A stretch of 64,000 bases of DNA from an uncultured bacterium (GCA_942492765.1 OW818634.1:281159-345158); one strand, 5' to 3'; shown: positions 2,878 to 56,139, numbered from the stretch's first letter. Translations and numbers: made by a program. Notes: a model not told the origin generated them from the sequence alone.

Positions 2878-2907
2878 TCAGTAAACTCTAAAAGATATTT
2901 ACATGTT

Positions 2908-2936: not shown

Positions 2937-2962
2937 TATTATAATTAAATATAAATATATTT

Positions 2963-3400: not shown

Positions 3401-3435
3401 AGCAGTTAATCATTTTGAATAACTGCTCTTTTTTG
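3401..3435. terminator. Bidirectional intrinsic terminator between convergent Nudix and radical SAM genes
   Basis: Stem agcagtta (3401-3408) pairs with taactgct (3420-3427) across an 11-nt loop. A T-tract (cttttttg) follows on the plus strand and an A-run (3392-3400) precedes it, giving a T-tract on the minus strand. Confidence 0.6.
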
Positions 3436-3449
3436 TTTGTCCACACTAG

Positions 3450-4943: not shown

Positions 4944-4969
4944 GATATCGGATCCTTTCTTTAATTGGT

Positions 4970-5986
4970 TTATGAATCTAATTTTATTTTACCTAGTTGT
5001 TCGTAGAATCGTTCAGTTTCTTGTTTTAATGGACGCCACCATGTTTCATTCTGTTGGTACCAGAATATGGTTTCTGCGAGCATGTCAACAAATTTATACT
5101 CGGGATTCCAACCCAAGTCTCGGTTAATTTTACTGCAATCAATAAAATATTGGCTATCATGACCAGGTCGATCAGAAACAAATTCTATATAATCCTGGGT
5201 TTTATTCATAATCTTCAAAATCATTTTTACCAATGTTAAATTATTGATTTCTTCAGCGGAACTGCCAACGTAATAAGTTTCTCCGATATTATTCGCAATT
5301 AAAACCGCTTCGATTGCCCTACAATTATCTTCTACATATAACCAATCCCTAATCTGATTACCGCTCCCGTAGATAGGAGCCCTCCTATTATCAATAAGAT
5401 TGGTAATTACACGAGGAATAAATTTTTCTGGATGTTGATATGGGCCGTAATTATTCGAACATTTTGTGATTGTTATCGGCAAACCAAACGATTGATAAAA
5501 ATATTTGACTAAATAGTCTGAGGCCATTTTACTAGCCATATAAGGATTAGAAAAACAGTGCTCTCCGTCCTTATCATCTCTTTTTATCAAATCTAAAGTA
5601 GAGACATGATGGAATCTTTTAACCCCGTATTTTAATGCTGCTTCAAGTAAATTACTTGTTCCAACTACGTTTGTTTGCGTAAACACGCCCGGATTAACTA
5701 AGGAACGATCGATATGCGTTTCGGCTGCGAAGTTTACAATGCAGTCTGGTTTATTGTTTTTGATAATTCTATCAACAAATGCAAAATCGCTAATATTACC
5801 TCTAATAAACTGATAATCAAGGATGCTTTCTATATCTTTTAAGCTATTAGCATTACCAGCATAAGTTAATTTATCAAAATTTATAACCTTGCACTGTTTA
5901 TGATTTTTCAACCAAAAACGTATAAAATTAGACCCCATAAACCCCGATCCCCCGGTAATCATTAGTGTCGAGAATATTTCTTTCAT
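4970..5986 (-). CDS. NDP-sugar 4,6-dehydratase family (RmlB-like) SDR paralog with non-canonical active-site motif
   Basis: 338 aa. Features: GGSGFMGSNF Rossmann motif, FDKLTYAGNANSLKD, YMASK (YxxxK), IRDWLYVEDNCRAI, and RPGHDSQYFIDCSKINRDLGW. The family-conserved STDE motif reads STLD here. A strong SD (aaaggag) is present. Confidence 0.8.
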   Translation of the reverse strand: MKEIFSTLMITGGSGFMGSNFIRFWLKNHKQCKVINFDKLTYAGNANSLKDIESILDYQFIRGNISDFAFVDRIIKNNKPDCIVNFAAETHIDRSLVNPGVFTQTNVVGTSNLLEAALKYGVKRFHHVSTLDLIKRDDKDGEHCFSNPYMASKMASDYLVKYFYQSFGLPITITKCSNNYGPYQHPEKFIPRVITNLIDNRRAPIYGSGNQIRDWLYVEDNCRAIEAVLIANNIGETYYVGSSAEEINNLTLVKMILKIMNKTQDYIEFVSDRPGHDSQYFIDCSKINRDLGWNPEYKFVDMLAETIFWYQQNETWWRPLKQETERFYEQLGKIKLDS

Positions 5987-6039
5987 AGTTATACTCCTTT
6001 CAATTTTTAAAGTTCAACAATATAAAGCAATAACTAATT

Positions 6040-21900: not shown

Positions 21901-22914
21901 TTATTTAGTGGCGAGGATGCTGCGTTTATAAGAATCCAAATTATCTAAAGCGATACCCGTGCCCTTGGCGACGCAAAGCATGGCGTCGTCAGCGACATAA
22001 GCGGAAACACCGGTAGTCCGAGCGATTAATTGATCGATATTGCGGAGCAAGGAGCTGCCACCGGTAAGCACTATGCCCTTATCCATGATATCGGCCGATA
22101 ATTCCGGCGGAGTCTTCTGCAGCACTTTCTTAGCGGCAGCGATTATCGCCTCTAGCTCGTTCTGGATAGCTTCAGTCACATCATCGCTCGAGACAGTCAG
22201 ACTGCGCGGCAGGCCGGTCACGATATCGCGTCCGCGTATCTCCAGATAAAGCTTATCCTCCATATATAAGGCCGAGCCGATATTGATCTTTATTTCTTCA
22301 GCTGTACGCTCGCCGATAGCCAGGTTATATTTCTTGCGAATATATTCCAGGATAGCAGCATCGAACTTATTGCCGCCGACGCGCACAGAAGTCGAAGCGA
22401 CGATTCCGCCCAAAGAAATGACGGCCATTTCCGCGGTTCCGCCGCCGATATCGATAACCATGTGCCCAGTAGCTGAGCCGATGGGTATGTCAGCGCCGAT
22501 AGCCGCCGCCACCGGTTCCTTGATGATATAGGCCGCTTTAGCGCCAGCCGCGATAGTCGCTTCAATGACCGCGCGGCGCTCAGTAGACGAAATGCCCGCC
22601 GGGACGGCGACCATGACTTCCGGACGGAATAAGCGGATGCCCCCTAAGGTCTTATTGATGAAATAGCGTATCATCGCTTCGGTCGCCCGATAATCAGCGA
22701 TGACTCCGTCCTTCAAAGGACGCACGGCCATAATAGTATCCGGGGTGCGGCCGATCATATCCTTAGCCTCGTTGCCGACAGCCAGGATCTTCTTGTCATG
22801 GATAGAGACTGCCACCACGCTCGGCTCATTAATAACAATGCCGCGCTTAGGCAGATGGATTAGAGTATAGGTTGTACCAAGATCGATTCCGATCCTTTTA
22901 ATAAACATACGCAA
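21901..22914 (-). CDS. mreB: Actin-like rod-shape protein MreB (paralog 1, not next to mreCD)
   Basis: 337 aa with IGIDLGTTYTL, VIDIGGGTAEMAVISLGG and VLTGGSSLLRNIDQLI actin-fold motifs. Confidence 0.9.
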   Translation of the reverse strand: MRMFIKRIGIDLGTTYTLIHLPKRGIVINEPSVVAVSIHDKKILAVGNEAKDMIGRTPDTIMAVRPLKDGVIADYRATEAMIRYFINKTLGGIRLFRPEVMVAVPAGISSTERRAVIEATIAAGAKAAYIIKEPVAAAIGADIPIGSATGHMVIDIGGGTAEMAVISLGGIVASTSVRVGGNKFDAAILEYIRKKYNLAIGERTAEEIKINIGSALYMEDKLYLEIRGRDIVTGLPRSLTVSSDDVTEAIQNELEAIIAAAKKVLQKTPPELSADIMDKGIVLTGGSSLLRNIDQLIARTTGVSAYVADDAMLCVAKGTGIALDNLDSYKRSILATK

Positions 22915-26284: not shown

Positions 26285-26818
26285 TCAAGCCTTCTCTAAG
26301 AAGAACGGCTTGAAGCGGCGCGTCAAGGCGCCAGCCAGGCTGAACATTAATAAGCCGGCTGATCCGCTCCAGAGCATCTGATAAAAGAGATTAGACCAGA
26401 AAATTCCATTCCACAAGAAGAAAGCTCCAATAGAAGCGCCGGACAGATAGAACAGGAAGGCGGCAGCGATATCGTAAGCAGCCGTCGCCAAGAGCAGCAG
26501 CAACAAGAAAGAATACAAAGAACGGTTAGTCAGCCGGGTTTCCAATATCCAATTGGCAAAAATTACGGACAGGAAGAAAAGCAAGAGATAGAGGCCGAAA
26601 AAATAAAAAGAAAAAAGATCGAGCCAAAAGCCTAAGATCAAGGCGGCATACAACGAAGACTTGAATCCGAAAAAGAACAGGGTGAACATCAAGGCGATCA
26701 TCGCTAGGTTTATCTGGCTGAAAACTGAAGGCAGCGAAAAGATAAAAGAAAACTGGACGATGGCGACGCCTGAAAGCAATAAGATCAAGAATGCTATCTG
26801 CCAGATTTTTTTTATCAT
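26285..26818 (-). CDS. mreD: Rod shape-determining protein MreD (by position and topology)
   Basis: 177-aa polytopic hydrophobic protein immediately downstream of mreC. The sequence itself is poorly diagnostic. Confidence 0.55.
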   Translation of the reverse strand: MIKKIWQIAFLILLLSGVAIVQFSFIFSLPSVFSQINLAMIALMFTLFFFGFKSSLYAALILGFWLDLFSFYFFGLYLLLFFLSVIFANWILETRLTNRSLYSFLLLLLLATAAYDIAAAFLFYLSGASIGAFFLWNGIFWSNLFYQMLWSGSAGLLMFSLAGALTRRFKPFFLEKA

Positions 26819-26830
26819 AACCGGAATATA

Positions 26831-27634
26831 TTAAGGTATAAGGACAGACACTATAGTCAGATTATCAAGGTCGACGAGAGGCTCGATGATCGCCTCCTGC
26901 CAAACCTCGTTGCTTTCATTGAAAACCTGGGTGACGCGGCCGATAACCAGACCGCGGGCGATATGTTCGCCCAAACCCGAGGTGATGACGATGTCTCCCG
27001 GCGCTATCTTCTCTAGCTGCGGAATATAATTCATCCTGATAGTCAGGCCGAGATCGCCATCGGTTATGCCCTGCGTCTTATCGGAATTCTGGATAGCGGC
27101 GGCTAGCTGGCAATTAGGATTAGTCGTCAAGCATATCTTAGCCGTCGCGTCTTTCGTTTCTAAGACTTTACCGACGATCAAGCCGTCTTCGCTGACTACC
27201 GCTAAGCCAGCGACTAATCCGTCCTTGGCACCGCGATTGATAACTAAGCCCAGGCTATCTTCAGCGGCCGCTTCTTTGGCGATGACGCTCGCGACTACAG
27301 TCCGTGAATTACTATTGCTAGCGAATTTCAAGGCCTCGCGCAGCTTGCGATTCTCTTCCTCTATCTCTAAGCTGCGGGAATTAGCCACAGTCAGGACTAA
27401 CACTTCTTTAGCTAAACGATCAGCTCGCGCGGCTGGATCTTCCGGATTATTATTGGCGTCATAAGCCGTCTTGATATTCGTGCCGGCATTATAAAAACGG
27501 CTGGCGATAGGCTTGACCAGATAAACCAGAGAATTCTCCAACGGCCGCAAGAATCCCGATATATGCAAAAAAAACAGCGCGGCGGCTATTATCAGGCAAG
27601 GGACGACCGGATTGTTTTTCTTGATTCTAACCAT
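26831..27634 (-). CDS. mreC: Rod shape-determining protein MreC
   Basis: 267 aa with an N-terminal TM, a coiled-coil segment (LEIEEENRKLREAL) and a beta-rich C-terminal domain (GDIVITSGLGEHIARGLVIGRV). It follows mreB. Confidence 0.8.
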   Translation of the reverse strand: MVRIKKNNPVVPCLIIAAALFFLHISGFLRPLENSLVYLVKPIASRFYNAGTNIKTAYDANNNPEDPAARADRLAKEVLVLTVANSRSLEIEEENRKLREALKFASNSNSRTVVASVIAKEAAAEDSLGLVINRGAKDGLVAGLAVVSEDGLIVGKVLETKDATAKICLTTNPNCQLAAAIQNSDKTQGITDGDLGLTIRMNYIPQLEKIAPGDIVITSGLGEHIARGLVIGRVTQVFNESNEVWQEAIIEPLVDLDNLTIVSVLIP

Positions 27635-27635
27635 A

Positions 27636-28676
27636 TTAATCAGTATTCGAAGGCAGAACGACTTTCTCTAATAATTCCTTATCAGTTAATAAGATGCCGG
27701 TGCCGCGCACGACGCAAGTCAATGGATCATCGGAAATCTTGACAGGAATCTTGGTCGCCAGAGAGATAGCCTTGTCCAAGCCGCGCAGCAGGGCGCCGCC
27801 GCCGGAAAGATACAGGCCGCGCTCATAAATGTCAGAAACTAATTCCGGAGGAGTCGTCTCTAAGATAGTCTTGATGTTATCGATGATCTTGACGACGGTG
27901 CGATTGATCGCTTCCCTGATCTGCTTGTCGCTGACCATGAGAGCCTTAGGCAAGCCGGTAACGAGATCGCGGCCGCGCACTTCTATCTCGGTCGGAGCCT
28001 CCAGGGGGACAGCCGAACCGATAGCGATCTTGATCGCTTCCGCCAGCTGCTCGCCGATGAGAATATTGAATTCTTCGCGGATATACTCGATGATGTTGTT
28101 ATCAAATTCGTTTCCGGCCGCTTTCAGAGATTTCCAGGTGACGACGCCGCCGAGCGAGATGACGGCGATTTCCGTCGTGCCGCCGCCGATATCTACGACC
28201 ATGGTCGCGGTCGCTTCAGTTACGGGCAAGCGGGCGCCGATAGCAGCGGCCATCGCTTCCTCGATCAGATAGACCTTGCGGGCGCCGGCAGACTTGGCAG
28301 CATCCTCGACCGCCTTCTTCTCTACCTCGGTCAGGTCGAGCGGAATGCCGATGACGACGCGCGGGCGGGAGATGAGAGTAAAATTCTCAGTATGGACTTT
28401 ATTAATAAAATATTTGAGCATCTTCTCAGTCACTTCAAAATCAGAAATGATCCCTTCGACGAGCGGCTTAATCGCTTCGATATGGCCCGGAGTCTTGCCG
28501 ACCATCTTCTTGGCAGCCTCGCCGACCTCCAGGATTTCATTCGTACGCTTATTGATAGCGACAACGCTAGGCTCGTTGATTACTAGCCCCTTATCAACAA
28601 CATAAACCAGGGTATTCTTGGTTCCCAAGTCGATTCCTAAGTCATGGCTGAATTTTCCGAGCAGATTATTGAACAT
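27636..28676 (-). CDS. mreB: Actin-like rod-shape protein MreB (paralog 2, in mreBCD)
   Basis: 346 aa with LGIDLGTKNTLVYV, VVDIGGGTTEIAVISLGG and YLSGGGALLRGLDKAI. Confidence 0.9.
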   Translation of the reverse strand: MFNNLLGKFSHDLGIDLGTKNTLVYVVDKGLVINEPSVVAINKRTNEILEVGEAAKKMVGKTPGHIEAIKPLVEGIISDFEVTEKMLKYFINKVHTENFTLISRPRVVIGIPLDLTEVEKKAVEDAAKSAGARKVYLIEEAMAAAIGARLPVTEATATMVVDIGGGTTEIAVISLGGVVTWKSLKAAGNEFDNNIIEYIREEFNILIGEQLAEAIKIAIGSAVPLEAPTEIEVRGRDLVTGLPKALMVSDKQIREAINRTVVKIIDNIKTILETTPPELVSDIYERGLYLSGGGALLRGLDKAISLATKIPVKISDDPLTCVVRGTGILLTDKELLEKVVLPSNTD

Positions 28677-33257: not shown

Positions 33258-33791
33258 ATGAAAAAGCTGATCTTATCGATGCTGCTCGTCGCAGTAGTTT
33301 CTGCCAGCGCCAGCGCTATTAGAACTAATGACGAAGTCATTGTCATGCAAAAAGGAGGCAACTATATCACCTATGTCCTCCAGCATTATAATAATGACGT
33401 CAGGCTCGTCTATCGCGCCCCCGTAGGACTCAATAATTCAGACCTTAAGAATCTCGGCATCCCGACAGAGGCTTGGCCGCTGATAAAGTCAAACGGGGAC
33501 ATGATATTCTCTTTAAATCATTATAATGATACGAAGAAGATCGAGTCCTTAAGCCAAGAGATATCTGAAAAGAAAGAGACTATCAGGAAACAGAATCTCT
33601 GGCTATTTATCATGGTCATAAGTCTCGGGGTCATGACTTCTTTAGCAATCAGGGGAATGGTCTCCAGCTCTAACCGCTGGACTATCGAAGGCACATTAAA
33701 CAAGATCAATCCCTGGAATGATCGGCACAGAGCCCAATCTTATCGCATCCCCCTGAAAGTTTTTTTCGGCGGCAGCGGCGATGATTATTAG
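33258..33791 (+). CDS. Hypothetical exported, membrane-anchored protein
   Basis: 177 aa. It has a signal peptide (MKKLILSMLLVAVVSASASA), a ~90-aa ectodomain, a short coiled segment and one TM helix (LWLFIMVISLGVMTSLAI). I recognise no family. Confidence 0.5.
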   Translation: MKKLILSMLLVAVVSASASAIRTNDEVIVMQKGGNYITYVLQHYNNDVRLVYRAPVGLNNSDLKNLGIPTEAWPLIKSNGDMIFSLNHYNDTKKIESLSQEISEKKETIRKQNLWLFIMVISLGVMTSLAIRGMVSSSNRWTIEGTLNKINPWNDRHRAQSYRIPLKVFFGGSGDDY

Positions 33792-33940: not shown

Positions 33941-34615
33941 ATGGAAACAACGGAAAGCCAAATTTATCAAAACCCCAACTTGATTATCCTCTTCATCACC
34001 CTTCTCCTTTTATTCCTAGTTCTGAGATTCTTCTTGAAAAAATTGAACACCAGACTGGCCATATACGATATCCGCCGGAGATTGAAAGAAAAGTGCCGCT
34101 TCGAGTTCGAGGGCATCGTTGAGCTATTCAAGCATCTCCCCGTGCGCAAGATTTGGGGAGAACAATATGAAATCGATGATTATATTAAAACCATGATTAC
34201 CGATGCCGCTTCTCTGAAAGAATGCTTCTTCCATATTCAAGTAATAATCTCGAACCGAAAAAAGAGAGAAGCGCTGACAGAGCTGGTTATCGACAGCATC
34301 AAGAGGCAATTCTCTATCGAGGACTTGGCCAAAATCTACGCCGACTGTCTTCTAAAAAATGCCCTGCAAAGAAATGGGCTGGCTCACAATCTATTTCCAG
34401 AAGAAAAGGCTCTCATAGCTTCGATCATAGCTGATAATCATCTGAATGAAGATGCTATGCGGAGAGAAGAGTCTTTCCGAAACCAAGTAATAAGAACAAT
34501 GGAAAGCGCTCTCGGCAGCAAAAACGAAGAAGCGAGAGTGTTGATTAGGGCTGAAATTATCAAATTCAAGAACTCGAAACTTCCGGCCAATAAGAACTCC
34601 GAATTCAGGGCTTAG
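33941..34615 (+). CDS. Hypothetical N-terminally anchored all-alpha protein
   Basis: 224 aa with one N-terminal TM (LIILFITLLLLFLVLRFF) and then charged helical sequence. I recognise no family. Confidence 0.5.
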   Translation: METTESQIYQNPNLIILFITLLLLFLVLRFFLKKLNTRLAIYDIRRRLKEKCRFEFEGIVELFKHLPVRKIWGEQYEIDDYIKTMITDAASLKECFFHIQVIISNRKKREALTELVIDSIKRQFSIEDLAKIYADCLLKNALQRNGLAHNLFPEEKALIASIIADNHLNEDAMRREESFRNQVIRTMESALGSKNEEARVLIRAEIIKFKNSKLPANKNSEFRA

Positions 34616-38875: not shown

Positions 38876-39400
38876 TTAAGCTTTTCTACTTTTGATGTGC
38901 TTACTAATCTCAGCAATCACCGACTCTTTGCCGGAATCATACTTAGAGTAGTCGTCAGCATAAAGGCTATATAAATATTTCTTAGTCGCAATATACAAAT
39001 CACGATCTTCTTTATTCCCCAATAGATGATTACGGAAAGCTAAAATATTATCTATCTCTTGATGCCCTTTTGGAAGAACATGAATACTGGCCAATCTTTC
39101 TCCTGCCGCATCGTCTTCGGTAAAATATTCTTCTCCTATACCAGTATAATTGCCGCGAGAACTAAATCGGGCAGTCTCCATCTTGGCTAGATTTTCTCGC
39201 AGTGCATCCAGATTATCGACTACGACCAAAACATCGATTTGCGGTTTAGCAATCATCCCTGGGATAGAGGTGCTGCCGACATGATAAATTTCTAAAACTA
39301 AATCTCCAAGAGCTCCAATAATCCGCTGTTTTTTATCCGCAAACCAGCTGGGCCATTCAGGGTTATATTCGACTAATTTGTAAGGACGGTGAATTTTCAT
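38876..39400 (-). CDS. GrpB family protein
   Basis: 174 aa with YNPEWPSWF and HVGSTSIPGMIAKPQIDVLVVV, typical of the GrpB/nucleotidyltransferase-like family. Confidence 0.8.
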   Translation of the reverse strand: MKIHRPYKLVEYNPEWPSWFADKKQRIIGALGDLVLEIYHVGSTSIPGMIAKPQIDVLVVVDNLDALRENLAKMETARFSSRGNYTGIGEEYFTEDDAAGERLASIHVLPKGHQEIDNILAFRNHLLGNKEDRDLYIATKKYLYSLYADDYSKYDSGKESVIAEISKHIKSRKA

Positions 39401-39410
39401 ATAAACTTAA

Positions 39411-40055
39411 TTACTTCCTGCAGCACTTCTTAAGCTGAACTGATGTCCCGTTCCTGCCGACTGCTTGAATCCAGTTCGTTCTCCCTGAGACGGATACATC
39501 GGAAAAAATAATTTCTAGCCCTAGGTCTGTAATATATTTTTCAATTTCAGATTGAGTGAAATAACTAAAAAATCTCTTATATTCATAGCCATAATCATTT
39601 TCGGTCTTTATCTCTTCCTCTACGCCCTTAACATGCGATTCTTTGACGGCTACATATAGATAGCCGCCCGGCTTTAACTTAGCTACCGCGTCACGCAGCC
39701 TGGCAAATACCTCTTTTTTAGGGACATGAAGCAATACTGCCTGCATGAATATCGCTTCAAAAGAATAATCCAATTTTCTAATATCTTCCAATGGCAAAGT
39801 GAAAAAAATACCATCTGGAGTTTCTTTTTTTGCAATTTCAATCATTTTTTCTGAAATATCAATCCCAACAACTCGTAATTTATTTTGGATAAAATATTTC
39901 GATTTTAACCCTCCAGCGCAACCAACATCCAGGACTAAATCTCCTGGCTTCAGCAAGGAAATAAATCTATTAGTTCCCTCGATCCACCAGTCATCAGCCA
40001 TGTGATCCTGGTGCCAGTCGGACGCGATTTTATTATAGGTTTCTTTTAAATCCAT
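39411..40055 (-). CDS. Class I SAM-dependent methyltransferase
   Basis: The probable start is the ATG at 40055 (MDLKETYNKIASDW), one nt after the secA stop; the track ORF extends to 40160 inside secA. SAM motif I is VLDVGCAGG. Confidence 0.8.
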   Translation of the reverse strand: MDLKETYNKIASDWHQDHMADDWWIEGTNRFISLLKPGDLVLDVGCAGGLKSKYFIQNKLRVVGIDISEKMIEIAKKETPDGIFFTLPLEDIRKLDYSFEAIFMQAVLLHVPKKEVFARLRDAVAKLKPGGYLYVAVKESHVKGVEEEIKTENDYGYEYKRFFSYFTQSEIEKYITDLGLEIIFSDVSVSGRTNWIQAVGRNGTSVQLKKCCRK

Positions 40056-40056
40056 A

Positions 40057-42789
40057 TTATTTCCCGCAACACTGCTTATACTTTTTCTCGCTGCCGCACG
40101 GGCACGGATCATTGCGGCCGACTTTCTCGCCGCTCTCGTCCTTGGCTTTCTCATGGACAAGATCAGTCGTATTGCGTCCGCTCGCTTCCTTATGCATCTC
40201 CTTGACCGCTCCGGTAAAATCTAATTTCTTCTCCGGAGCTTCAGCGAATAATTTCAGATCTGAAGACGCCGCCATCGTCAAAGCGTCAGCTGTCTTATAG
40301 ATAGAATAGACTACCTGGCGGCTGATGAGATCGTTCAATTCCTGATAAAGATGGTAAGCCTCTTTCTTATATTCGACGAGCGGATCGCGCTGGCCATAGC
40401 CGCGCAGGCCGATGCCGCGGCGCAGATAATCGACAGTTTCGAGATGCTCTACCCACATCTGATCGATAGAACGAATGAGCACGCCCTTCTCAACTTCCTT
40501 GAATTCGAGGTTGGCGGTCTTGAAGGTCGCATCCAAAGTCTGATATTTATTTTTCGCTTCCGTAATCAAGAGATTCAAGATCTCACTTCTCAGCTCATCC
40601 TTAGAGCGGCTGCTTTTTATGACCTCTTCCATGGGAGCCAGCATATCAGCGCCAGTCCAGATAGTGCGCATGGTTTCGGCAATTTCCTTGATATTCCATT
40701 CGGCCGCATTATCGGCAGCCGTATGAAAATTGACGACTTTGGCGATTTCAGCGTCAACCATCTCTAAGACGATATCACCCAAAGCGCGCGCTGGCTCAAT
40801 AGAGCCATCTTCCTTACCCTGCTCCGCTCTCACGCCCTCGGCAATCTCTAAGATTTCGCGGCGGCGGCGATAGATGCCTAGGCGATGCTTATTGATGACA
40901 TCATCATATTCCACTAAGTGCTTTCTGATATCGAAATTATTCCCTTCTACTTTCTTCTGCGCGCTTTCAATCGAACGGGAAATCATCTTATTCTCTATCG
41001 GCATATCAGCTGGGACTTTCAGAGTCTTCATCAATCCCTTCATGCGGTCGCCGCCGAAGATACGCATCAGATCGTCATCGGTCGAGACATAGAATTGGGA
41101 AGAGCCCGGGTCGCCTTGGCGGCCAGCGCGGCCGCGCAGCTGGTTATCGATGCGGCGCGATTCATGGCGCTCGGTACCGACGACATGCAAGCCGCCTAAA
41201 GCGCGGACTTCAGCCTGTTCAGTCTCTAGCGGCGGATTGCCGCCCAAGATTATATCGACGCCGCGGCCGGCCATGTTCGTCGCTAAAGTGATGGCGCCCT
41301 TACGTCCGGCCTGAGCGATGATCTCCGCTTCCTTCTGATGATTCTTGGCGTTTAACATCTGCGGGCGCAAGCCTTCGCGTTCCATGAGCTCCGCTAGCAC
41401 TTCATTCTTCTCGATTGAAATAGTACCGATCAGCACCGGCTGGCCTTTTTGGCTTCTCTCTTTAGTGTCGCGGATGACAGCCTGAAACTTATCCATTTCC
41501 GTGCGGTATATCAAATCATTCAAATCCTTACGGACATTCGGACGATTAGTCGGGATGATGATAGTCTCTAAATTATAAATCTTATGGAATTCCTCGGCTT
41601 CAGTCGCGGCCGTTCCAGTCATGCCGGATAATTTTGTATATAGGCGGAACAAATTCTGAAAAGTGATAGTCGCCATGGTCTGGGATTCTTTCTGGACCTT
41701 CACGCCTTCTTTCGCTTCAATCGCCTGATGCAAACCTTCGCTATAGCGGCGTCCGGGCATCAAGCGTCCGGTGAATTCGTCGACGATGATTATTTCTCCA
41801 TCTTTCACGACATAATCCTTATCGCGCTTGAACAAGACGCGCGCTTTCAAGGCCTGCTCGAGATGATGGACTTCCTTGACTCCGCCTTCGACATAGATAT
41901 TGCCGAGCCCGAGGATCTTCTCGACTTTGTTGATGCCGCCTTCGGTTAGGGTCGCGGCTCGCATCTTCTCATCGACGTTATAATCGTCATTCTCTTCCAA
42001 ACGTTCTACTATCTGGGCAAACTTGAAATATTTATCAGTCGATTCTTCGGCGGCAGCGCTGATGATAAGAGGCGTACGCGCTTCATCGATCAAGATGGAG
42101 TCGATCTCATCCACAATAGCGTAATGAAGCGGACGCTGGACAGCCTGATCCAGATTATAGACCATATTATCGCGCAGATAATCAAAACCGAATTCGTTAT
42201 TAGTGCCATAAGTGATGTCGCAAGCATAAGCCTCGCGGCGCGGGATCCTCTTGAAATGCTGCAAGCGCTCATCATACTGGCTCTCGTCGACATATTCCGG
42301 ATCATAACCATAAGCGATATCATGGACGATGACGCCGGTCGTGAGGCCCAAACTATGAAATACCGGAGCCATCCAGCCAGCGCCTAAGCGGGACAAGTAA
42401 TCATTAACGGTGATCAGGTGGACGCCTTTTCCAGCCAAAGCGTTAAGATATAGAGGCAACGTCGCAACCAAGGTCTTGCCTTCGCCAGTCTTCATTTCCG
42501 CAATCTGGCCGCGATGCAGCACAATACCGCCGATAAGCTGGACATCGAAATGGCGCTGGTTTAAGATACGGCGAGCGGCTTCGCGGATAGTAGCGTATGC
42601 TTCCGGCAAAAGGTCATCAAGAGTCTCGCCCTTGGCCAATCTCTCTTTGAATTTTGCGGTCTGCGCTTTCAGCTTTTCCGCATCCAGGGCCTGCAATTCC
42701 GGCTCAAAGCTGGCAATCTTATCGATCGTCGGCTTCATGGCTTTGACCATTTTTTCATTAGCGTCTCCAAATAGCTTAAAAATATTCAT
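40057..42789 (-). CDS. secA: Preprotein translocase ATPase SecA
   Basis: 910 aa with MKTGEGKTLVATLP, a DEAD-like DEIDSILIDEARTPLIIS, and the C-terminal zinc motif CPCGSEKKYKQCCG. Confidence 0.95.
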   Translation of the reverse strand: MNIFKLFGDANEKMVKAMKPTIDKIASFEPELQALDAEKLKAQTAKFKERLAKGETLDDLLPEAYATIREAARRILNQRHFDVQLIGGIVLHRGQIAEMKTGEGKTLVATLPLYLNALAGKGVHLITVNDYLSRLGAGWMAPVFHSLGLTTGVIVHDIAYGYDPEYVDESQYDERLQHFKRIPRREAYACDITYGTNNEFGFDYLRDNMVYNLDQAVQRPLHYAIVDEIDSILIDEARTPLIISAAAEESTDKYFKFAQIVERLEENDDYNVDEKMRAATLTEGGINKVEKILGLGNIYVEGGVKEVHHLEQALKARVLFKRDKDYVVKDGEIIIVDEFTGRLMPGRRYSEGLHQAIEAKEGVKVQKESQTMATITFQNLFRLYTKLSGMTGTAATEAEEFHKIYNLETIIIPTNRPNVRKDLNDLIYRTEMDKFQAVIRDTKERSQKGQPVLIGTISIEKNEVLAELMEREGLRPQMLNAKNHQKEAEIIAQAGRKGAITLATNMAGRGVDIILGGNPPLETEQAEVRALGGLHVVGTERHESRRIDNQLRGRAGRQGDPGSSQFYVSTDDDLMRIFGGDRMKGLMKTLKVPADMPIENKMISRSIESAQKKVEGNNFDIRKHLVEYDDVINKHRLGIYRRRREILEIAEGVRAEQGKEDGSIEPARALGDIVLEMVDAEIAKVVNFHTAADNAAEWNIKEIAETMRTIWTGADMLAPMEEVIKSSRSKDELRSEILNLLITEAKNKYQTLDATFKTANLEFKEVEKGVLIRSIDQMWVEHLETVDYLRRGIGLRGYGQRDPLVEYKKEAYHLYQELNDLISRQVVYSIYKTADALTMAASSDLKLFAEAPEKKLDFTGAVKEMHKEASGRNTTDLVHEKAKDESGEKVGRNDPCPCGSEKKYKQCCGK

Positions 42790-42989: not shown

Positions 42990-43964
42990 TCAATGAGCGC
43001 GATTATCAACTTCATATTTCGTATTCTGCGCTTCAAAAAAATTGACGAGCTCGAGCGTGTCGGTTTCCGTCGCCATCCATTGCGCCGGGTTAACGTCATG
43101 GAAATGCGCTTCAAAACCTAATTCCTCCAGGCGCCGATCAGCGACATAGCGGACATATTGGTTGACATAATTGGCGTTCACGCCGGCGATGCCGCGCGGA
43201 AAAAGATCCTGATTATAAGCATTCTCCAGGCTGACGCCTTCGATGATGATACTCTTGATCTCAGCGGCAAATTCCGTCGTCGCGATTTCCGGATTCTCTT
43301 CTAGAATAGTTAGGATGAGATTCAGGCCGAATTTCAGATGCAGACTCTCGTCGCGGACGACCCAATCGATCATCGACGCGAAATTCTTGAGCTGCTGCTT
43401 CTGACGAAAACTGAGCGCGACCATGAAGCCGCTGTAGAACCAGATGCCTTCCATAACTATATTGAAAGCGACTAAGTTACGGACCAGATCCTGCTTGCCG
43501 CCGACGCTCTCGATATCTAGGTTCTCAGTCATGCGGCCGAGATATTTAGCAATGAACGCTTCTTTGGCTCTGATCGAAGGCGTCTCGAGATGAACATTGA
43601 AAGCTTTTTCTTTATCGAGCGGAAAAGTTTCTAAGACATATTCGAAAGCCTGACAATGATTAGCTTCTTCCCACATCTGTTTCGCTAGATACAGGTGCGC
43701 TTCCGGCGCTTTCAGGTAAGGATAGACTCCTAGGGCCAAAGAACGATTGACGATCAGCTCAGACGGATTAAAGAAGCTCATCAGGAAACTGACGGCATGC
43801 TTCTCGTCGGCGCTCATCTTCTTAAAATCCTCCAGGTCTTCCCCGAGCGCGATCTCGTGCGGAAACCAGGTATTGGCGACAGCTTGATTATATAAGTCAT
43901 AAGCCCACTGATAGTGAATGGGGCGGAGATTCATGTCTCCTTCTAAAGGTTTTCCTAATATCAT
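42990..43964 (-). CDS. nrdB: Ribonucleotide reductase small subunit, class Ic-like (R2c: Phe at the radical-Tyr position)
   Basis: 324 aa. The ferritin-like metal motifs are FFNPSELIV, EEANHCQAF (E-x-x-H-x-x-x-F), MEGIWFYSGF and RDESLHLKF. Overall it strongly resembles my recollection of Chlamydia trachomatis R2. Confidence 0.85.
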   Translation of the reverse strand: MILGKPLEGDMNLRPIHYQWAYDLYNQAVANTWFPHEIALGEDLEDFKKMSADEKHAVSFLMSFFNPSELIVNRSLALGVYPYLKAPEAHLYLAKQMWEEANHCQAFEYVLETFPLDKEKAFNVHLETPSIRAKEAFIAKYLGRMTENLDIESVGGKQDLVRNLVAFNIVMEGIWFYSGFMVALSFRQKQQLKNFASMIDWVVRDESLHLKFGLNLILTILEENPEIATTEFAAEIKSIIIEGVSLENAYNQDLFPRGIAGVNANYVNQYVRYVADRRLEELGFEAHFHDVNPAQWMATETDTLELVNFFEAQNTKYEVDNRAH

Positions 43965-44005: not shown

Positions 44006-46444
44006 TTACTGGCAGCTTTCGCATTGCAAGCGTTCTTGCGGATCAAGCGGACAAGCTTTGTTTTCCGTCTCGCCCGCAGATTCTTTCGTAGCGCTGACCG
44101 GCGGCGCCGCGACTGCGCCAAAACCACGCTTGCCTAGCGCCGCGCCCTTATTGATCTTGACCGTGCTTTGTTCGGCGCTATGGCGCGGCTTCATGTGCAG
44201 ATAATAAGTCGTCTTCAAACCGCTCTCCCAAGCCGAGATATATAACTCCATGATAGTATCGATCGCTCGCGTCTCCAGATACATATTGCGGCTGATCGCT
44301 TGATCAACCCATTTCTGCGCCCGAGCCGCTACTTCGATGAAGGCTTCGGGCCGGACAGAAAAAGAATCCTTAAAGATAGCGCGGATATCTTCTGGGATAT
44401 TATCAAGCCCGCTGATATCGCCGTAGCTCGATAAGATCACGTCTTTCAAGCTCTCCCATAAGCCGAGCTCTTTCAGGCGCCCGACTAGATTAGTATTCAG
44501 CTCCAAATGCTTGCCGCCGAGAGTGTTGCGGCTGAATATCTGAGAGAAGCGCGGATCGATTCCGGTCGAAGTGCCGGCGACCAAGCCGATATTAGCCGTC
44601 GGGGCGATCGCCAAGAGCGTCGAATTGCGCATCCCTTTCTTAACGCGTTCGCGCAGCTTCTCCCAATCGAGCTTGAAATCTCGGCTCACCTTCAGAGCGA
44701 GGCCGCGATTCTTTTCTAAAGTCGACAAGGTATCATAAGGCACGCAGCCTTTTTCCCAGCGCGAACCGGGAAAATTAGGATAAGCGCCGCGCTCAATCGC
44801 TAGATCAGCGCTAGCGGAAATCGCTTCATAGCTGATGAATTCCATGAGCTCATCAGTCAACTCAGCCGCGGCCGGCGCATCATACGCCAGATCTAATGAT
44901 TCGAAGATGTCGGCTAAACCCATGACTCCAAGCCCGAGAGCGCGGTTGCGGCTGTCAAAATTCTTCGCTTCTGGAATCGGCGGTTCATTTATATCCACGA
45001 GATTATCCAAACTGCGTATCGCCAAGCGCACGCTTTCGCCCAGCTTCCTCCAATCGATCTCGCGGCCGTCTAGATGCCGCGCTAGATTTATCGAAGTCAG
45101 GTTGCAGACCGCCACGTTATCGCGATTCGCGGGCAGAGTTATTTCCGTACAGAGATTAGAACCATAGATAGTCCCGGTATTATTGTTCAACGCGCGCACG
45201 TTGATCGCATCCTTGAACGTGAGCCAGGGATGCGCGGTCGCCTGCAGCGAAACGATTATCTGGCGGAACTGATCAAGGGCTTTGAGCTTCTTGAAATGCC
45301 GCATCTTCCCCGCCTCGGCCAGCCGGCAATATTCTTCATAACGGCGGCTGAAATCAGCGCCATAGAGGTCAACTAGGTCAGGCGTCTCGGCCGGATCGAA
45401 AAGATACCAATCCGCGTCCGCTTTGACTCGCTTCATGAACTCATCAGAAAGATAGACGGCGATATTAGCCGTCCGCGTCCGCCGATAATCATCGCCGGCA
45501 TTCTGCTTCAGATCCATGTATTCCTGAAAATCAAGATGCCAATTCTCCATATAGAAGCAGAGCGCTCCCATCTTCTTGCCCGCTCGCGAAATCGCGCGGA
45601 TCGAAGAATCAATGATATGCAGGAACGGAATCGGGCCGGAAGAAAAAGTATTATTAGTCGATATCGGCGAGCCGCTAGCGCGCAGCTTGGTCACGGACAG
45701 GCCGATGCCGCCGGTCGCTTTCGACAGCTTCAAGACATCGGCCACGGTCTTGCCGATATGATCGATATCATCTTCCATATCCATGATGAAGCAATTGCTC
45801 AAACGCGAACGGACCGCGCCGACATTAACGTTGGTCGAGCCTCCAGGGACATATTCCAAGCGCGACATCTTCTCGTAGAACCGCGCGGCGATATCATCTG
45901 GATCGGCTTCGTTCCAAGATAAGCCCATAGCGGCGCGCAGCCAGAAATACTGCGGCAGCTCCAACAGGCGCTGATTCCGATCGCGCATCAGATAGCGGCG
46001 CGACAGCGTTTCTAAGCCGGCAAAAGTAAACAGATCATCGCGACCGATATCGGCCGCGCCGATCAGCTTGTCGAAGTCGAATCTTTCTAATTTCGGCGAC
46101 AACCAGCCAGCCTTGATGCTCGTCTCGATATTCTCTCGGAACTGCGCGCGATAACGCGACGCGAAGACTGGGTGGCCGCTGCTGATGCCCAGAACTTCAC
46201 GATAAAGGCTATCCAGCAAAAGACGCGCCGCTAAGCGGTCATAGACGGGATCCTCCTTGATATGCTGGCTCGCGGCTCGGATAATCACTTTTTCTAATTC
46301 CGCCTCGGTGATGCCTGCGTAAGACATCAAGGCGGCTTCGCCGGCGATCGCCGCCAAAGATTCTGCTTCTAGATTAAGCGCCGCTCTCTGCCCGTTAAGG
46401 CCGACGGCGGCTGATTTCAGCCTTTCGATTATTTTCGTATCCAT
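44006..46444 (-). CDS. nrdA: Ribonucleotide reductase large subunit, class I, without a recognisable ATP-cone
   Basis: 812 aa with SNCFIM, NLCTEITLP (active-site Cys/Glu region), APTANIG, and a C-terminal Cys-containing tail (CESCQ). Confidence 0.9.
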   Translation of the reverse strand: MDTKIIERLKSAAVGLNGQRAALNLEAESLAAIAGEAALMSYAGITEAELEKVIIRAASQHIKEDPVYDRLAARLLLDSLYREVLGISSGHPVFASRYRAQFRENIETSIKAGWLSPKLERFDFDKLIGAADIGRDDLFTFAGLETLSRRYLMRDRNQRLLELPQYFWLRAAMGLSWNEADPDDIAARFYEKMSRLEYVPGGSTNVNVGAVRSRLSNCFIMDMEDDIDHIGKTVADVLKLSKATGGIGLSVTKLRASGSPISTNNTFSSGPIPFLHIIDSSIRAISRAGKKMGALCFYMENWHLDFQEYMDLKQNAGDDYRRTRTANIAVYLSDEFMKRVKADADWYLFDPAETPDLVDLYGADFSRRYEEYCRLAEAGKMRHFKKLKALDQFRQIIVSLQATAHPWLTFKDAINVRALNNNTGTIYGSNLCTEITLPANRDNVAVCNLTSINLARHLDGREIDWRKLGESVRLAIRSLDNLVDINEPPIPEAKNFDSRNRALGLGVMGLADIFESLDLAYDAPAAAELTDELMEFISYEAISASADLAIERGAYPNFPGSRWEKGCVPYDTLSTLEKNRGLALKVSRDFKLDWEKLRERVKKGMRNSTLLAIAPTANIGLVAGTSTGIDPRFSQIFSRNTLGGKHLELNTNLVGRLKELGLWESLKDVILSSYGDISGLDNIPEDIRAIFKDSFSVRPEAFIEVAARAQKWVDQAISRNMYLETRAIDTIMELYISAWESGLKTTYYLHMKPRHSAEQSTVKINKGAALGKRGFGAVAAPPVSATKESAGETENKACPLDPQERLQCESCQ

Positions 46445-46487
46445 AAAAGAAAAATAAAATATTATAAATATATGAACTAGGCTTTCG

Positions 46488-46532
46488 CCTATGTTGTGGT
46501 CTAATTATATTTATTATACCATATGTAGTGGT
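46488..46532. promoter_or_regulatory. Candidate tandem NrdR boxes upstream of nrdA
   Basis: The related elements cctatgttgtgg (46488-46499) and ccatatgtagtgg (46519-46531) have right ends 32 bp apart. The gene-strand form CCACTACATATGGTAT matches about 12/16 positions of the remembered NrdR consensus acaCwAtATaTwGtgt. The second box matches mainly one half-site. Confidence 0.4.
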
Positions 46533-46541
46533 AGGGGACAA
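46513..46541 (-). promoter_or_regulatory. Candidate nrdAB promoter (TTGTCC-N17-TATAAT)
   Basis: The minus strand reads TTGTCC (46541-46536), a 17-nt spacer, and TATAAT (46518-46513), about 70 nt upstream of the nrdA ATG. The spacer contains one candidate NrdR box. Confidence 0.5.
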
Positions 46542-46573
46542 TGCCGCAAAATCCCCGAAAAATCAAATAAATA

Positions 46574-46598
46574 CCAAAAATCCGCCTGGCGGGCGGAT
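46574..46598 (-). terminator. Intrinsic terminator downstream of hpf
   Basis: The minus strand reads atccgcc-cgcca-ggcggat followed by ttttgg (hairpin 46580-46598). Confidence 0.6.
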
Positions 46599-46651
46599 CT
46601 TTAATCTTTTCTGTGGATAACTTTTAAACTCAAGGCGGAACGAGCACTTCT

Positions 46652-50904: not shown

Positions 50905-53013
50905 TTATTTTCCGGTCGCGATCTTATCCAGGTTAGCGTTGCTGATCCCTAAGCCGCGGCTCCTGATGACGTTGAAAGCATCCGCCGGGCGGCCGAGATA
51001 ATATAATTTCAGCTTGAGCGGATCGAAATAATAGGCCATGCCCTTGTCTTCCGTTTTTAATAAGATACGTCCGGCCAGTTGTTTCCAGGCGCTCGGATTT
51101 TTCGCCAACGCTGTAAAATTCTCATTAGATATCCCTAAACCGAAACGACGCATCAAATTAAAAGCGTCGGTCGGGCGGCCGAGATAATACTTCTTGCTGT
51201 CTGTCGGATTGACATACCAAGCCTGCCCCTTATCCTGGACCTGCAATAAGATCCGGCCTTTCAGACTCTGAGCCAGAGAAGACGCGGCCGTAACGGTAGA
51301 GTTCGCGGATGAAGACGAAGATGAATTCGCAGTCGAGTTCGAGGCGGCCGAGCTTGATGAAGTCGAACTAGTCGAAGGCGCATTCTCTTTTATCCGCGCC
51401 TCGAAAGTCGTATCCTTATCCGCAGAAACGAGAATATTATACAGAATTATCGTCGTGCCGCTAGCATTCTTCGAACTAACGACATAGCGCCCGGTCTGAT
51501 TGCGGCGATACGGATTATAAGGAGCGACATAGATATAAGCTTGCCCGCCAGCATCAGTGGTCATATTCGAAATCAGGCCGTTATTAGGGATGATCGGATT
51601 ATTGTCAGCGTCATATTGCTGAGCGGAAAGAGAAAAATTATGATTGCGTTTCAGATTTCCTTTGCCATCGCGCAAGATTATCTTAAGTAGCGGCACGGTT
51701 TTAGCAATCGTCTTATCCGTAGCGCAAGTGAACTTAAGCGCATCGAAGAACCAGAACTCGCCGAGATCAGCTCTCTTATCCCAGACTTTCAAAGCATAAG
51801 TCTTGGCAGTGTCCGGCTTAAAAGCCACAGAAGCTCTCCCGCCCGAATCAATGGTTCCGCTTGAAACCTTGGTTCCGGCCGACGGCAAGCCATTCGCGTC
51901 AACTACCTGAGTATAGACTTCGAATTTCAATCCCGGAGCGATATCGCCGGCAGCATTGCGCAAAGTTATATTCAGATTAGAACTGCTATTGCAGACGCCG
52001 GTTGACGAAACCGAAGACGACGACGATGAAGAATAGGCTTTATCTAAAGTCAGGAGGAATTGACTGGTAGTGCCATCGGCCACCCGGTTATCCCAAACAT
52101 ATTTATAGGTCCCATCGGCGTTCTTAATGGCCAACATATACAGACCGGGGGCGATTTCCATTGAGCCATAGCCGTTGTCGCCGATAGTAAATTCTCCAAC
52201 TTTTGTACCTTTAACATAATTGTCGCTCGCATCCGTGCCCTGGTTATAGACCTCGACCTTCGCGCCGACCGCATTATTATCGTTAGCATCCTTTAGGCGG
52301 ACTTTTATGACGCTCAAATAATAATTGACGTTAGTCAGCTGGCCGTCATAAATCTGAATGTTATAGAAATAAGATTTCACGCCATTGTAAGTTATCTCCA
52401 TGACGTAAAGATCTTTCAAGGTTCCGTCGATGCTTCGGACGCTTCCCTGCGGCAGATAGGCCTTGACGCGACCGGTCGAACCGGAATTAAGGCTAGCTAG
52501 CAGCTCGTCCTTCATCGGTTCGCCGTCAGTATCGGTCGTCTGAGAATAAACATTGAAAGAAGTATTGGTCAGAAGATTATTATCAGAATCATAGAGAGTA
52601 AATGAAGCGCCGCTCAAAGTCCGCTCGACCGCGGCGGTTTCGCCGCAATCTAAATTTATCCCATAGAACCAGAAGCTCGCGTTATCCTTAGAAATTGTCT
52701 GGACGCGGATGACATAGGTATCGGACGAGACGTTAGCATTGCGCCAGATCAGATTCACACGGCCTAAGACCGAATCAGTATTGCCGCCAGTAAACTTGGT
52801 AGTCGGCCGAGTAAGGCCGTTCGCATCTCGCTCTTGTTTATAGACATCAACGCGGGCGTTCATAATATAAGCGCCGCCCGGATCGCGCGCTACGAAATTA
52901 ATACTCGTATTCTGATTGCAAGTCGCCGCCTCTGAAACTGACGGGGCTAAAAATAAAGCCGCAAAGAAAAAACAGACCCCTAAAATCAGCCAGGTTTTTT
53001 TTATCTTTAACAT
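50905..53013 (-). CDS. Large secreted modular surface protein (Ig-like/CarboxypepD_reg-like modules, Ser-rich linkers, tandem C-terminal repeat domain)
   Basis: The ATG at 53013 (MLKIKKTWLILGVCFFFAALFLAPSVSEA signal peptide) is preferred over the TTG at 53031. Several ~100-aa beta-rich modules are present (INFVARDPGG..., LNITLRNAAGD..., LKIILRDGKGN...). There are two poly-Ser/Thr linkers and two C-terminal ~60-aa repeats. Confidence 0.7.
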   Translation of the reverse strand: MLKIKKTWLILGVCFFFAALFLAPSVSEAATCNQNTSINFVARDPGGAYIMNARVDVYKQERDANGLTRPTTKFTGGNTDSVLGRVNLIWRNANVSSDTYVIRVQTISKDNASFWFYGINLDCGETAAVERTLSGASFTLYDSDNNLLTNTSFNVYSQTTDTDGEPMKDELLASLNSGSTGRVKAYLPQGSVRSIDGTLKDLYVMEITYNGVKSYFYNIQIYDGQLTNVNYYLSVIKVRLKDANDNNAVGAKVEVYNQGTDASDNYVKGTKVGEFTIGDNGYGSMEIAPGLYMLAIKNADGTYKYVWDNRVADGTTSQFLLTLDKAYSSSSSSSVSSTGVCNSSSNLNITLRNAAGDIAPGLKFEVYTQVVDANGLPSAGTKVSSGTIDSGGRASVAFKPDTAKTYALKVWDKRADLGEFWFFDALKFTCATDKTIAKTVPLLKIILRDGKGNLKRNHNFSLSAQQYDADNNPIIPNNGLISNMTTDAGGQAYIYVAPYNPYRRNQTGRYVVSSKNASGTTIILYNILVSADKDTTFEARIKENAPSTSSTSSSSAASNSTANSSSSSSANSTVTAASSLAQSLKGRILLQVQDKGQAWYVNPTDSKKYYLGRPTDAFNLMRRFGLGISNENFTALAKNPSAWKQLAGRILLKTEDKGMAYYFDPLKLKLYYLGRPADAFNVIRSRGLGISNANLDKIATGK
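50908..51260 (-). repeat. Coding tandem repeat (2 units of ~185 nt)
   Basis: The peptides GRILLQVQDKGQAWYVNPTDSKKYYLGRPTDAFNLMRRFGLGISNENF and GRILLKTEDKGMAYYFDPLKLKLYYLGRPADAFNVIRSRGLGISNANL repeat. At the DNA level, gggcggccgagataata recurs at about 50988 and about 51173. Confidence 0.8.
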
Positions 53014-53184
53014 TTTATTTAATATTAGCAAAATAAATTAAATATTCCTATTACCCCGGCAGGCTAGAAAAATCGCCAGGGATAACTGAGTTCATTATAG
53101 CATATCTGACTAGAAAATAAACTGGATTTTTCATTGATTTTTAGGGATTAAACTGATATATTTAGAACATAATCCGCTAAAAAT

Positions 53185-54570: not shown

Positions 54571-56139
54571 CTAACGAGAATTGATCTTGAATAAGCTGTA
54601 AGTGAAATCTTGGCCGTTCTTCTTGTAATCAGTAATGAACTTGAAAGGCAGAAGCTTCTTGAAACTGTATATCCGCCAAGTCACTGCTCCGACTTTGGAA
54701 TAATTATCTCTGATATGGTCTTCGATGATCTGACTGCGCAAAGTGGTTTCTATGGGCTTATCTGCGACCAAGAGACAGTCGACCAGCTTGTCCTCCAGCT
54801 CAGCGACAATCATTTTCTGTACATCTTCCGTGAAGGTCCAATTCCAATTAGGGTAAACAAACCTGATCCTCTTGACCGCGGGCAACTTGATATACATCGG
54901 CAGATTATATTGATCGGCCGGATAAACATAAACATATCGGCAGCCCACTACCTCTTCTATATAGGCGGCGGCGCCCGGAGCAAAATCAGAATGATAGAAT
55001 TCCCCAGGCCTGATCCAGAAGATGCGATAAGCCTCTTTGCCTAATGAAAAGATAAAATTAGCGCCGGCTAAAAGTATGTACGATAGAATCAAAAGAGCTA
55101 GCGCGCCGGCGACACGCCTCTTATAGCCAGAAATCCGAACAACAAATCGCTGGTAAAGCTTCTCCCTGAAAAATAAGAATACCCCGGTCAAGAAACCGGC
55201 CATGGCCGGAAGCAAATGAAAATTACCATAGAGGGGGTAAGACATCAGCAGCAGGCACAGCGAAGATAGGATCGGAAAAGTCAGCTTATAATATCTCTCC
55301 CTGCTCTCTTTATTGAAGAATATCGCGCCTAGAACGATGATATCGACAGAAAAAATCAAGAAAAACAGACTGAACGGCTTCGGCGGCCAAGCGCGGGCCA
55401 GACGAGAAACGACTTCAAAATTATAGGTGAACATCAGATAAGCGACTTCTTTGAGATTATCACGATAGATATATAAGAACGGCAATAACGGCGTAATCAT
55501 CCCGGCGACGAAGCGGGCGATGTTCTTCAGGTTTATCAGAACCCGTTCCCTTTTGAAATTAAGCAGGCAATAAAGAAAAAAACCGCAAGATAATAAGACA
55601 AAGGCGTTAAATTTTATCAGGAAGAGCGCTCCGAATAAGACACCGAGAATGACGAGATTAATATTATTGGACCGTGATCGAGACTCCGCCCTGATCTTTG
55701 AGAAAGACAGATAAATAAGAATTACCAGACAAGCGACGTACGGCTCGGGCAGGAAGACGCCGCCGAACATGACCGTCCAAATCAAGATGAGAAACGCTGC
55801 CGATAATATCCGCCCCTTGATCCCGAAAGAAAAATTACGAAAAAAATACCTGATGAACAAGGTGCAGATCGAGGAATTTATGATTATCATCCACAGCGGA
55901 AAAAACTCATAGCCGCCGAGATAAAAGAGCGGCGCGAATAGATAATATTGCAACGGACCGTGATGCTCAAAAAAATCTATAAATGGAACGTAGCCGGAAA
56001 AAGTTTGCCAAGCCGACAAGAGATGCTCCCAGCCATGAATGCCTTTAGACAAATAGAAAAGATAAGCAGCGAAAGCGGCCGCCAAGAAATATGCCAGATA
56101 CTCCCAGAAATATTTATTTATTCTCTTTTTTAGTTTCAT
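54571..56139 (-). CDS. Polytopic (~11-12 TM) membrane protein with ~150-aa C-terminal soluble domain; candidate GT-C-type glycosyltransferase/polymerase
   Basis: 522 aa. The early loop [13 protein letters not shown] carries acidic residues, as in the first loops of GT-C enzymes. It lies in a glycan locus that otherwise lacks a polymerase/ligase. I recognise no definite family. Confidence 0.5.

Follow-up and report, generated by a model that had tools for sequence, protein, structure and literature searches.

The nrdB gene and its metal site

We analysed a 64,000-nucleotide stretch of DNA from an uncultured bacterium (GCA_942492765.1, OW818634.1:281159-345158), referred to here at its full length as the window, in which an earlier note had pointed to a gene for the small subunit of a class I ribonucleotide reductase (RNR) of the kind known from Chlamydia trachomatis. 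The gene in question, nrdB, is a minus-strand open reading frame (ORF) that runs from ATG to stop over positions 42990..43964 and encodes 324 amino acids (aa). Its product matches Pfam family PF00268 over residues 11-293 (E=5e-77) and scores 361 bits against the NCBIfam RNR-beta equivalog NF007186, for which the cutoff is 237. On sequence grounds, the PF00268 match marks the product as a true family member and not a chance motif. The gene for the large subunit, nrdA, lies immediately upstream on the same strand, 41 base pairs (bp) away. The two genes are as follows.

42990..43964, minus strand: nrdB, class I RNR beta subunit (R2), Phe-type (class Ic-like), 324 aa; identified by Pfam, NCBIfam, PDB sequence and Foldseek matches
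44006..46444, minus strand: nrdA, class I RNR alpha subunit (R1), 812 aa; Pfam lgN and lgC domains, NCBIfam NF005101 at 1140 bits against a cutoff of 988

All four motifs quoted in the earlier note are located in the nrdB ORF, with FFNPSELIV starting at residue 64 of the product, EEANHCQAF at 99, MEGIWFYSGF at 171 and RDESLHLKF at 204. Residue equivalences were established with a MAFFT alignment of the NrdB protein with Escherichia coli NrdB (NC_000913.3), residues 30-339 of the C. trachomatis class Ic R2 protein (R2c) and the 120 closest database homologs; the chlamydial sequence was rebuilt out of the HMMER alignment to 1SYY. Conservation was also counted across related loci from a homolog scan that used one genome per GTDB species, with the loci of the best 80 relatives, out of at least 597 genomes, being used for these counts. 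The key positions of the protein are listed below, with codon coordinates for four of them.

43758..43760, minus strand: codon GAG for Glu69 (E. coli Asp84, C. trachomatis Glu89), first metal ligand; Glu in 120/120 homologs and 80/80 loci
43644..43646, minus strand: codon TTC for Phe107 (E. coli Tyr122, C. trachomatis Phe127), the radical-tyrosine position; Phe in 120/120 homologs and 80/80 loci
43362-43364, minus strand: codon for Trp201, at the position of C. trachomatis Tyr222; Trp in 120/120 closest homologs and 80/80 loci
43014..43016, minus strand: codon TAT for Tyr317 (C. trachomatis Tyr338), C-terminal tyrosine of the inter-subunit radical-transfer path; invariant in 120/120 homologs and 80/80 loci
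Within nrdB: Glu100 and His103 (E. coli Glu115 and His118, C. trachomatis Glu120 and His123), metal ligands
Within nrdB: Glu172 (E. coli Glu204, C. trachomatis Glu193), metal ligand
Within nrdB: Glu206 and His209 (E. coli Glu238 and His241, C. trachomatis Glu227 and His230), metal ligands
Within nrdB: Trp33 (E. coli Trp48, C. trachomatis Trp51), radical-transfer path
Within nrdB: Phe176 (E. coli Phe208, C. trachomatis Phe197), between the metal sites

The alignment bears out the two substitutions on which the earlier note had relied, namely a Phe where the radical tyrosine would stand and a Glu in place of the first-site Asp. The remaining ligands had been described as present, and they are indeed kept, giving a complete metal site of four Glu and two His (E69, E100, H103, E172, E206 and H209). 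A ten-residue signature, W-E-E-H-F-E-W-E-H-Y, is identical in 80/80 related loci. The equivalence of Tyr317 is given relative to the chlamydial protein, the tail region not being reliably aligned with E. coli.

Class assignment and the NrdA partner

When the NrdB sequence was searched against all PDB sequences, the best three matches were C. trachomatis R2 entries at 251-252 bits (1SYY at 252). The next match, at 222 bits, was 6Y2N, which is the R2 protein of Saccharopolyspora erythraea (PMC7467353), and scores then fell sharply to 117 bits for 6ZJK, an Asp/Tyr protein from Clostridium botulinum. An AlphaFold2 model built from 31 homologs was of moderate quality, with a mean predicted local distance difference test (pLDDT) value of 73 and a predicted template modelling (pTM) score of 0.76. 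Foldseek comparison of this model with the PDB placed C. trachomatis R2c at ranks 1-13 (TM scores of 0.79-0.81) and 6Y2N at rank 14, above all class Ia and Ib proteins. By BLASTP, NrdB shares 39.8% identity with the C. trachomatis protein and 35.9% with that of S. erythraea, against 33.8% with the closest representative of the Asp/Tyr type. The C. trachomatis-type signature proposed in the earlier note is thus recovered in full, comprising Glu69, Phe107 and the complete ligand set, with R2c as the top match by both sequence and predicted fold. The same note had called the whole protein highly similar to the chlamydial enzyme, which overstates an identity of only 39.8%, a value that reflects clear homology.

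The chlamydial protein (1SYY, 4D8F/G, 4M1H/I) shares with NrdB its family and fold, Glu as the first ligand, Phe at the radical site and identical residues at the other ligand positions, along with the pairs Trp51/Trp33, Phe197/Phe176 and Tyr338/Tyr317. However, NrdB is about 20 residues shorter at its N-terminus, and the hosts differ as well, the chlamydial one being an intracellular pathogen and that of NrdB a free or episymbiotic groundwater-type patescibacterium. The S. erythraea R2 carries the same Glu/Phe signature (FFATAE and EEAVHTHTF), but a neighbour-joining tree (described below) places it with Bradyrhizobium-type sequences (the P0135 cluster), apart from the patescibacterial group.

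The sequence-level features of class Ic are all found at this locus: R2 family and fold, Phe107, Glu69 with the full ligand set, Trp33, Tyr317, Phe176 and an adjacent, catalytically complete NrdA. By signature and best match, the nrdB product is a Tyr-less beta subunit of the class Ic type.

Other classes were considered and rejected. Class Ia and Ib proteins carry Asp and Tyr where NrdB has Glu69 and Phe107 (class Ib proteins also being of NrdF type in sequence), and the corresponding models score far under their cutoffs (95 bits against 355 for the NrdF model TIGR04171, and 78 against 346 for the class Ia model NF006576). Class Id proteins retain the radical-site Tyr, which is not oxidised, beside an Mn2 site (PMC8463856), and have NrdBi-type sequences; this Tyr is absent from NrdB, and the class Id structures 6CWO, 6CWP and 6CWQ reach only 56-58 bits. 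Class Ie proteins are metal-free and NrdI-dependent, with several carboxylate ligands replaced (PMC6176560). All six metal ligands are intact in NrdB, and NrdF-type models fall far under their cutoffs.

The NrdA protein, aligned to E. coli NrdA, keeps Cys218, Asn430, Cys432, Glu434, Cys447 and the Tyr747-Tyr748 dyad, and the C-terminal CESC pair is also present. A relaxed Pfam scan (E<=10) of NrdA residues 1-141 found no ATP-cone. The best solved alpha match, 5IM3 (608 bits over NrdA residues 32-812), is aligned from its residue 183, and the chlamydial-type alpha model PRK12365 (1046 aa) aligns to NrdA solely from its position 275 onward. Because of the missing ATP-cone and these late alignment starts, NrdA appears to be without an allosteric activity-site domain. 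The catalytic core is conserved between 5IM3 and NrdA, but 5IM3 has about 180 extra N-terminal residues that are absent from NrdA. We take 5IM3 to be the class Ia NrdA of Pseudomonas aeruginosa, its extra residues to be ATP-cones and its beta partner to be a Tyr-radical protein.

The nrdAB operon is native to its genome and not a recent insertion. In 80/80 related loci, nrdA precedes nrdB on the same strand, and the order hpf-nrdA-nrdB-secA is common to two of these (L001 and L002). The GC content at third codon positions (GC3) is 0.64 for nrdA and 0.57 for nrdB, in line with the core genes secA, frr, rseP and ileS. The neighbouring genes are housekeeping genes, comprising secA, hpf, an M50 protease gene, frr, holB, ileS, mreB/C, and mur and other cell-wall genes.

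Proposed mechanism and alternative explanations

We consider it likely that nrdA and nrdB make up a native operon of two genes, which encodes a class I RNR with a class Ic-type beta subunit. The mechanism would follow, by homology, that of the C. trachomatis enzyme. In this mechanism, E69, E100, H103, E172, E206 and H209 would hold a mixed-metal centre, with Mn(II) occupying site 1 and Fe(II) site 2. Once oxidised by O2 or by two H2O2, this centre would become a stable Mn(IV)/Fe(III) cluster and store the oxidising equivalent in place of a tyrosyl radical, the Phe at position 107 being redox-inert. The C-terminal tail of beta2 would dock it on alpha2, allowing an electron to pass from alpha Cys432 through Tyr748/Tyr747 to beta Tyr317 (and probably Trp33) and on to Mn(IV). 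The resulting Cys432 thiyl radical would start the reduction of ribonucleoside to deoxyribonucleoside diphosphates, and the Cys218-Cys447 disulfide would be re-reduced via the C-terminal Cys808/Cys811 pair. In class Ic enzymes, Mn(IV)/Fe(III) takes the place of the tyrosyl radical as the oxidant (PMC8463856, PMC4118035), and activation by H2O2 is also possible (PMC8463856). For the operon described here, we infer the metal identity, the oxidant, the activity and the control of nrdAB by NrdR.

To sample the wider family, HMMER was run over the full set of 1.84 billion representatives at 50% identity, returning 4181 matches, 164 of them at E<=1e-30. The best 150 representatives were aligned by hmmalign to the family hidden Markov model. 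Among these, the residue at the radical site varies together with the first ligand: Glu occurs with Phe, Leu, Val or Ile (22 full-length proteins) and Asp with Tyr in most others. This is the pairing given for class Ic (PMC4118035). A few of the 150 pair Glu with Tyr; seven such proteins (P0167, P0175, P0187, P0195, P0196, P0209 and P0246) score far above the solved class Id proteins against this family. The Phe-type relatives include proteins from Bradyrhizobium/Tardiphaga and Hydrogenobaculum, and near Asp/Tyr types come from the Xanthomonadales genera Lysobacter, Luteimonas and Thermomonas. At the position of C. trachomatis Tyr222, distant representatives have Tyr, Trp, Phe or Leu, in Phe-type and Tyr-type proteins alike. 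Many distant representatives (P0133, P0134, P0138, P0149, P0151 and others) are 600-750 aa long and match NrdB in two stretches, which is consistent with intein insertions, some of them near the metal-ligand helices.

A neighbour-joining tree was computed with 150 bootstraps and a lowered saturation cap, leaving out degenerate paralogs. NrdB and its two nearest representatives group together in 150/150 replicates, and the union of this group with the Phe-type proteins P0155 and P0178 is weak (87/150). Asp/Tyr types are interleaved in the tree, and its deep nodes are poorly supported.

Several observations weigh against a direct transfer of the chlamydial mechanism to this operon. Identity to the characterised enzymes is just 36-40%. 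Trp201 replaces C. trachomatis Tyr222, which we take to belong to the electron relay that operates when the cofactor is activated; because Trp, too, is redox-active, we would read little into the change. The NrdA sequence appears to lack the ATP-cones of the chlamydial alpha subunit. A clade that unites NrdB with the C. trachomatis protein to the exclusion of Tyr-bearing proteins occurs in 9/150 neighbour-joining replicates, and because of this the Tyr may have been lost independently of Chlamydia. As reviewed by Griese, Srinivas and Hogbom, the coordination sphere gives no a priori assignment of the metals, and loading with Mn/Fe in vivo had, as of that review, not been shown even for R2c (PMC4118035).

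Some of these points bear on the possibility that NrdB works as a class I beta subunit without the Tyr but uses a cofactor other than Mn/Fe (a homodinuclear Fe2 or Mn2 cluster, or another oxidant), in a lineage that lost the Tyr independently of Chlamydia. Metals that are unreadable from the ligand set (PMC4118035), a tree with no supported common Phe-type clade that includes C. trachomatis, 40% identity and the Trp201 found in 120/120 homologs would all be compatible with such a protein. However, the top two PDB matches, whether ranked by sequence or by fold, are the two characterised Phe-type R2 proteins (C. trachomatis and S. erythraea), and the site-1 Glu that accompanies Mn/Fe use in R2c and R2lox (PMC4118035) is present and invariant, leaving this explanation improbable. 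Somewhat less doubtful, and still no more than tentative, is the broader proposal that the Phe-type R2 proteins of Patescibacteria, which share no more than 40% identity with any studied R2c, carry an invariant Trp201, pair with an alpha that lacks an ATP-cone and occur in at least 597 species genomes, could be a separate lineage that may have lost the Tyr independently and may be the sole RNR of many CPR bacteria. If this were true, DNA synthesis in these supposedly anaerobic fermentative symbionts of the candidate phyla radiation (CPR) would depend on O2 or H2O2, possibly with a non-chlamydial combination of metal and oxidant. NrdB might instead be a beta-like subunit with no catalysis of its own, or only an accessory role, working together with a Tyr-bearing beta from another part of the genome, as the second, non-radical R2 subunits do in yeast. 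The 64 kb of genome that were read leave room for a second nrdB elsewhere, and degenerate R2 paralogs, with Ser or other residues at ligand positions, do occur among the distant representatives. Yet the six ligands, Trp33 and Tyr317 of NrdB are intact and invariant, unlike those of the degenerate paralogs, its gene is coupled to nrdA in 80/80 loci and no second nrdB was found among the ORFs of the window, so that we regard a silent role as very unlikely.

The two remaining explanations, which would remove NrdB from the Tyr-less RNR proteins altogether, have a probability close to nil. R2lox proteins share the ferritin-like fold, Glu as the first ligand and, in characterised members, an Mn/Fe site (PMC4118035), and NrdB does give weak matches to R2lox models. 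All R2lox NCBIfam models nevertheless score far under cutoff (the best at 82 bits against 194), and the R2lox structure 7QBK reaches 44 bits against 252 for R2c. R2lox is also not an RNR, and lacks both an R1-binding tail and an nrdA neighbour, whereas NrdB keeps the C-terminal Tyr tail and the adjacent nrdA. Phe176 of NrdB corresponds to C. trachomatis Phe197, a position that is Ala in R2lox and at which Phe would obstruct the R2lox ligand channel (PMC4118035). The grouping with R2lox that the earlier note had named as a possible refutation is therefore not what these scores indicate. It is equally hard to credit that NrdB is an ordinary tyrosyl-radical beta of class Ia, Ib or Id, with Phe107 an artefact of alignment. 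The one residue that invites this idea is Tyr109, two residues past Phe107, but the chlamydial protein has the same Phe-x-Tyr arrangement (F127, Y129), in which Tyr129 is the counterpart of Tyr109 and not the radical position. No Tyr moves into place upon gapping, the stretch from the ExxH motif to Phe107 (the fourth position after His) being ungapped in all alignments and of top posterior confidence in the HMMER alignments to 1SYY. In 2ANI, an engineered F127Y mutant of C. trachomatis R2c, the introduced Tyr aligns directly on Phe107, and the structures and models of classes Ib, Id and Ie score far lower than R2c.

Host range, transcriptional signals and the rest of the window

At least 597 species genomes encode relatives of NrdB. 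Identity to it is 70-91% among the best 80, nearly all of which are labelled Patescibacteria, with labels that include Falkow-, Staskawicz-, Nomura-, Zambryski- and Taylorbacteria and Paceibacteria. An identical protein is recorded in NCBI, and the homologs with named sources belong to Falkowbacteria and other Patescibacteria. The host is a Falkowbacteria-like patescibacterium of the CPR, in agreement with the symbiont-group bacterium presumed in the earlier note.

Class Ic was defined on the enzyme of one pathogen. A 2014 review found it mainly in extremophiles and pathogens, and already counted about 150 Tyr-less R2 sequences (PMC4118035). Database names for the patescibacterial proteins are generic (RNR beta subunit), and no description of a class Ic RNR in CPR, Parcubacteria or Patescibacteria was found in the open-access literature searched, an absence that is no proof of novelty. 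The subclass, its signature and its scattered distribution were already known, and the Patescibacteria are, in practice, a large new host group.

These results reveal no new mechanism. The strict conservation of a class Ic signature in native nrdAB operons across a large part of the Patescibacteria permits a more exact annotation, and would suggest that Mn and Fe are needed for making DNA precursors in CPR bacteria, with their reduced genomes. These bacteria are generally regarded as fermentative symbionts, and the physiological question is raised of whether they need O2 or peroxide to replicate. The oxygen-dependent RNR that the earlier note had proposed for such an organism is a reasonable suggestion but an incomplete one, given that a class II or III RNR may coexist with this enzyme and that H2O2 can activate class Ic proteins.

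Upstream of nrdA, the following putative transcriptional signals were located.

46573..46605, minus strand: terminator-like hairpin 3' of the upstream hpf, with a 14-pair stem followed by a T run; candidate 5' boundary of the nrdAB transcription unit
46513..46541, minus strand: promoter-like site ahead of nrdA, TTGTCC-17-TATAAT, TG-extended; from a consensus scan, its role suggested by its position
46516..46531, minus strand: NrdR-box-like 16-mer CCACTACATATGGTAT, overlapping the -10 hexamer; 6/6 highly conserved NrdR-box positions
46484..46499, minus strand: second NrdR-box-like 16-mer CCACAACATAGGCGAA; 4/6 conserved positions, starting 32 bp past the first with a 16-bp linker

The total of promoter-like sites in this region is not above the shuffled expectation. 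The highly conserved positions of NrdR boxes are C4, A6, A8, T9, T11 and G13, and paired boxes follow a linker rule of 15-16 bp (PMC13584703). The core CCACWACATAKG occurs in two copies 32 bp apart (46520-46531 and 46488-46499), with no further copies in the 64 kb and 0.01 expected by chance. Both NrdR-box-like sites are conserved in the close relatives L001-L005. Across the related loci, single sites upstream of nrdA are not enriched (12/73 regions, against 10% in shuffles), but correctly spaced pairs are (4/73 regions, against 0.14% in shuffles). The NrdR boxes are convincing only in L001-L005. Repression of nrdAB by NrdR is predicted as likely, and could compensate for the missing ATP-cone, in whose absence dATP would have to exert overall activity control by a different route, perhaps via NrdR. 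No nrdR gene turned up in the window when all six reading frames were searched by regular expression for an NrdR-like zinc ribbon.

Elsewhere in the window, no Pfam match (E<=1e-5) was obtained for two large ORFs, 50905-53031 (708 aa) and 54571-56139 (522 aa), or for the smaller ORFs 33258-33791, 33941-34615 and 26285-26818, and scans of the window with Rfam (gathering thresholds) and for tRNAs were empty. Two MreB paralogs lie about 5 kb apart (21901-22914 and 27636-28676), the second being followed by mreC (26831-27634). A GrpB-family gene (38876-39400) and an S-adenosylmethionine (SAM) methyltransferase gene (39411-40160) have GC3 values of 0.34-0.40, against 0.57-0.65 for neighbouring core genes, and look foreign. 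The real start of the methyltransferase is probably further downstream, because its listed TTG start lies about 100 bp inside the 3' end of secA.

A low-GC stretch at positions 2001-6000 (0.34-0.38, against a window mean of 0.47) contains genes for a B12-binding radical-SAM enzyme (3450-4943) and an NAD-dependent sugar epimerase/dehydratase (4970-5986). This stretch may have been acquired as a cassette for sugar modification. Enzymes of the radical-SAM type are as a rule labile towards oxygen, in contrast with an O2-requiring RNR, and the presence of one at 3450-4943 therefore suggests life at low or fluctuating oxygen.

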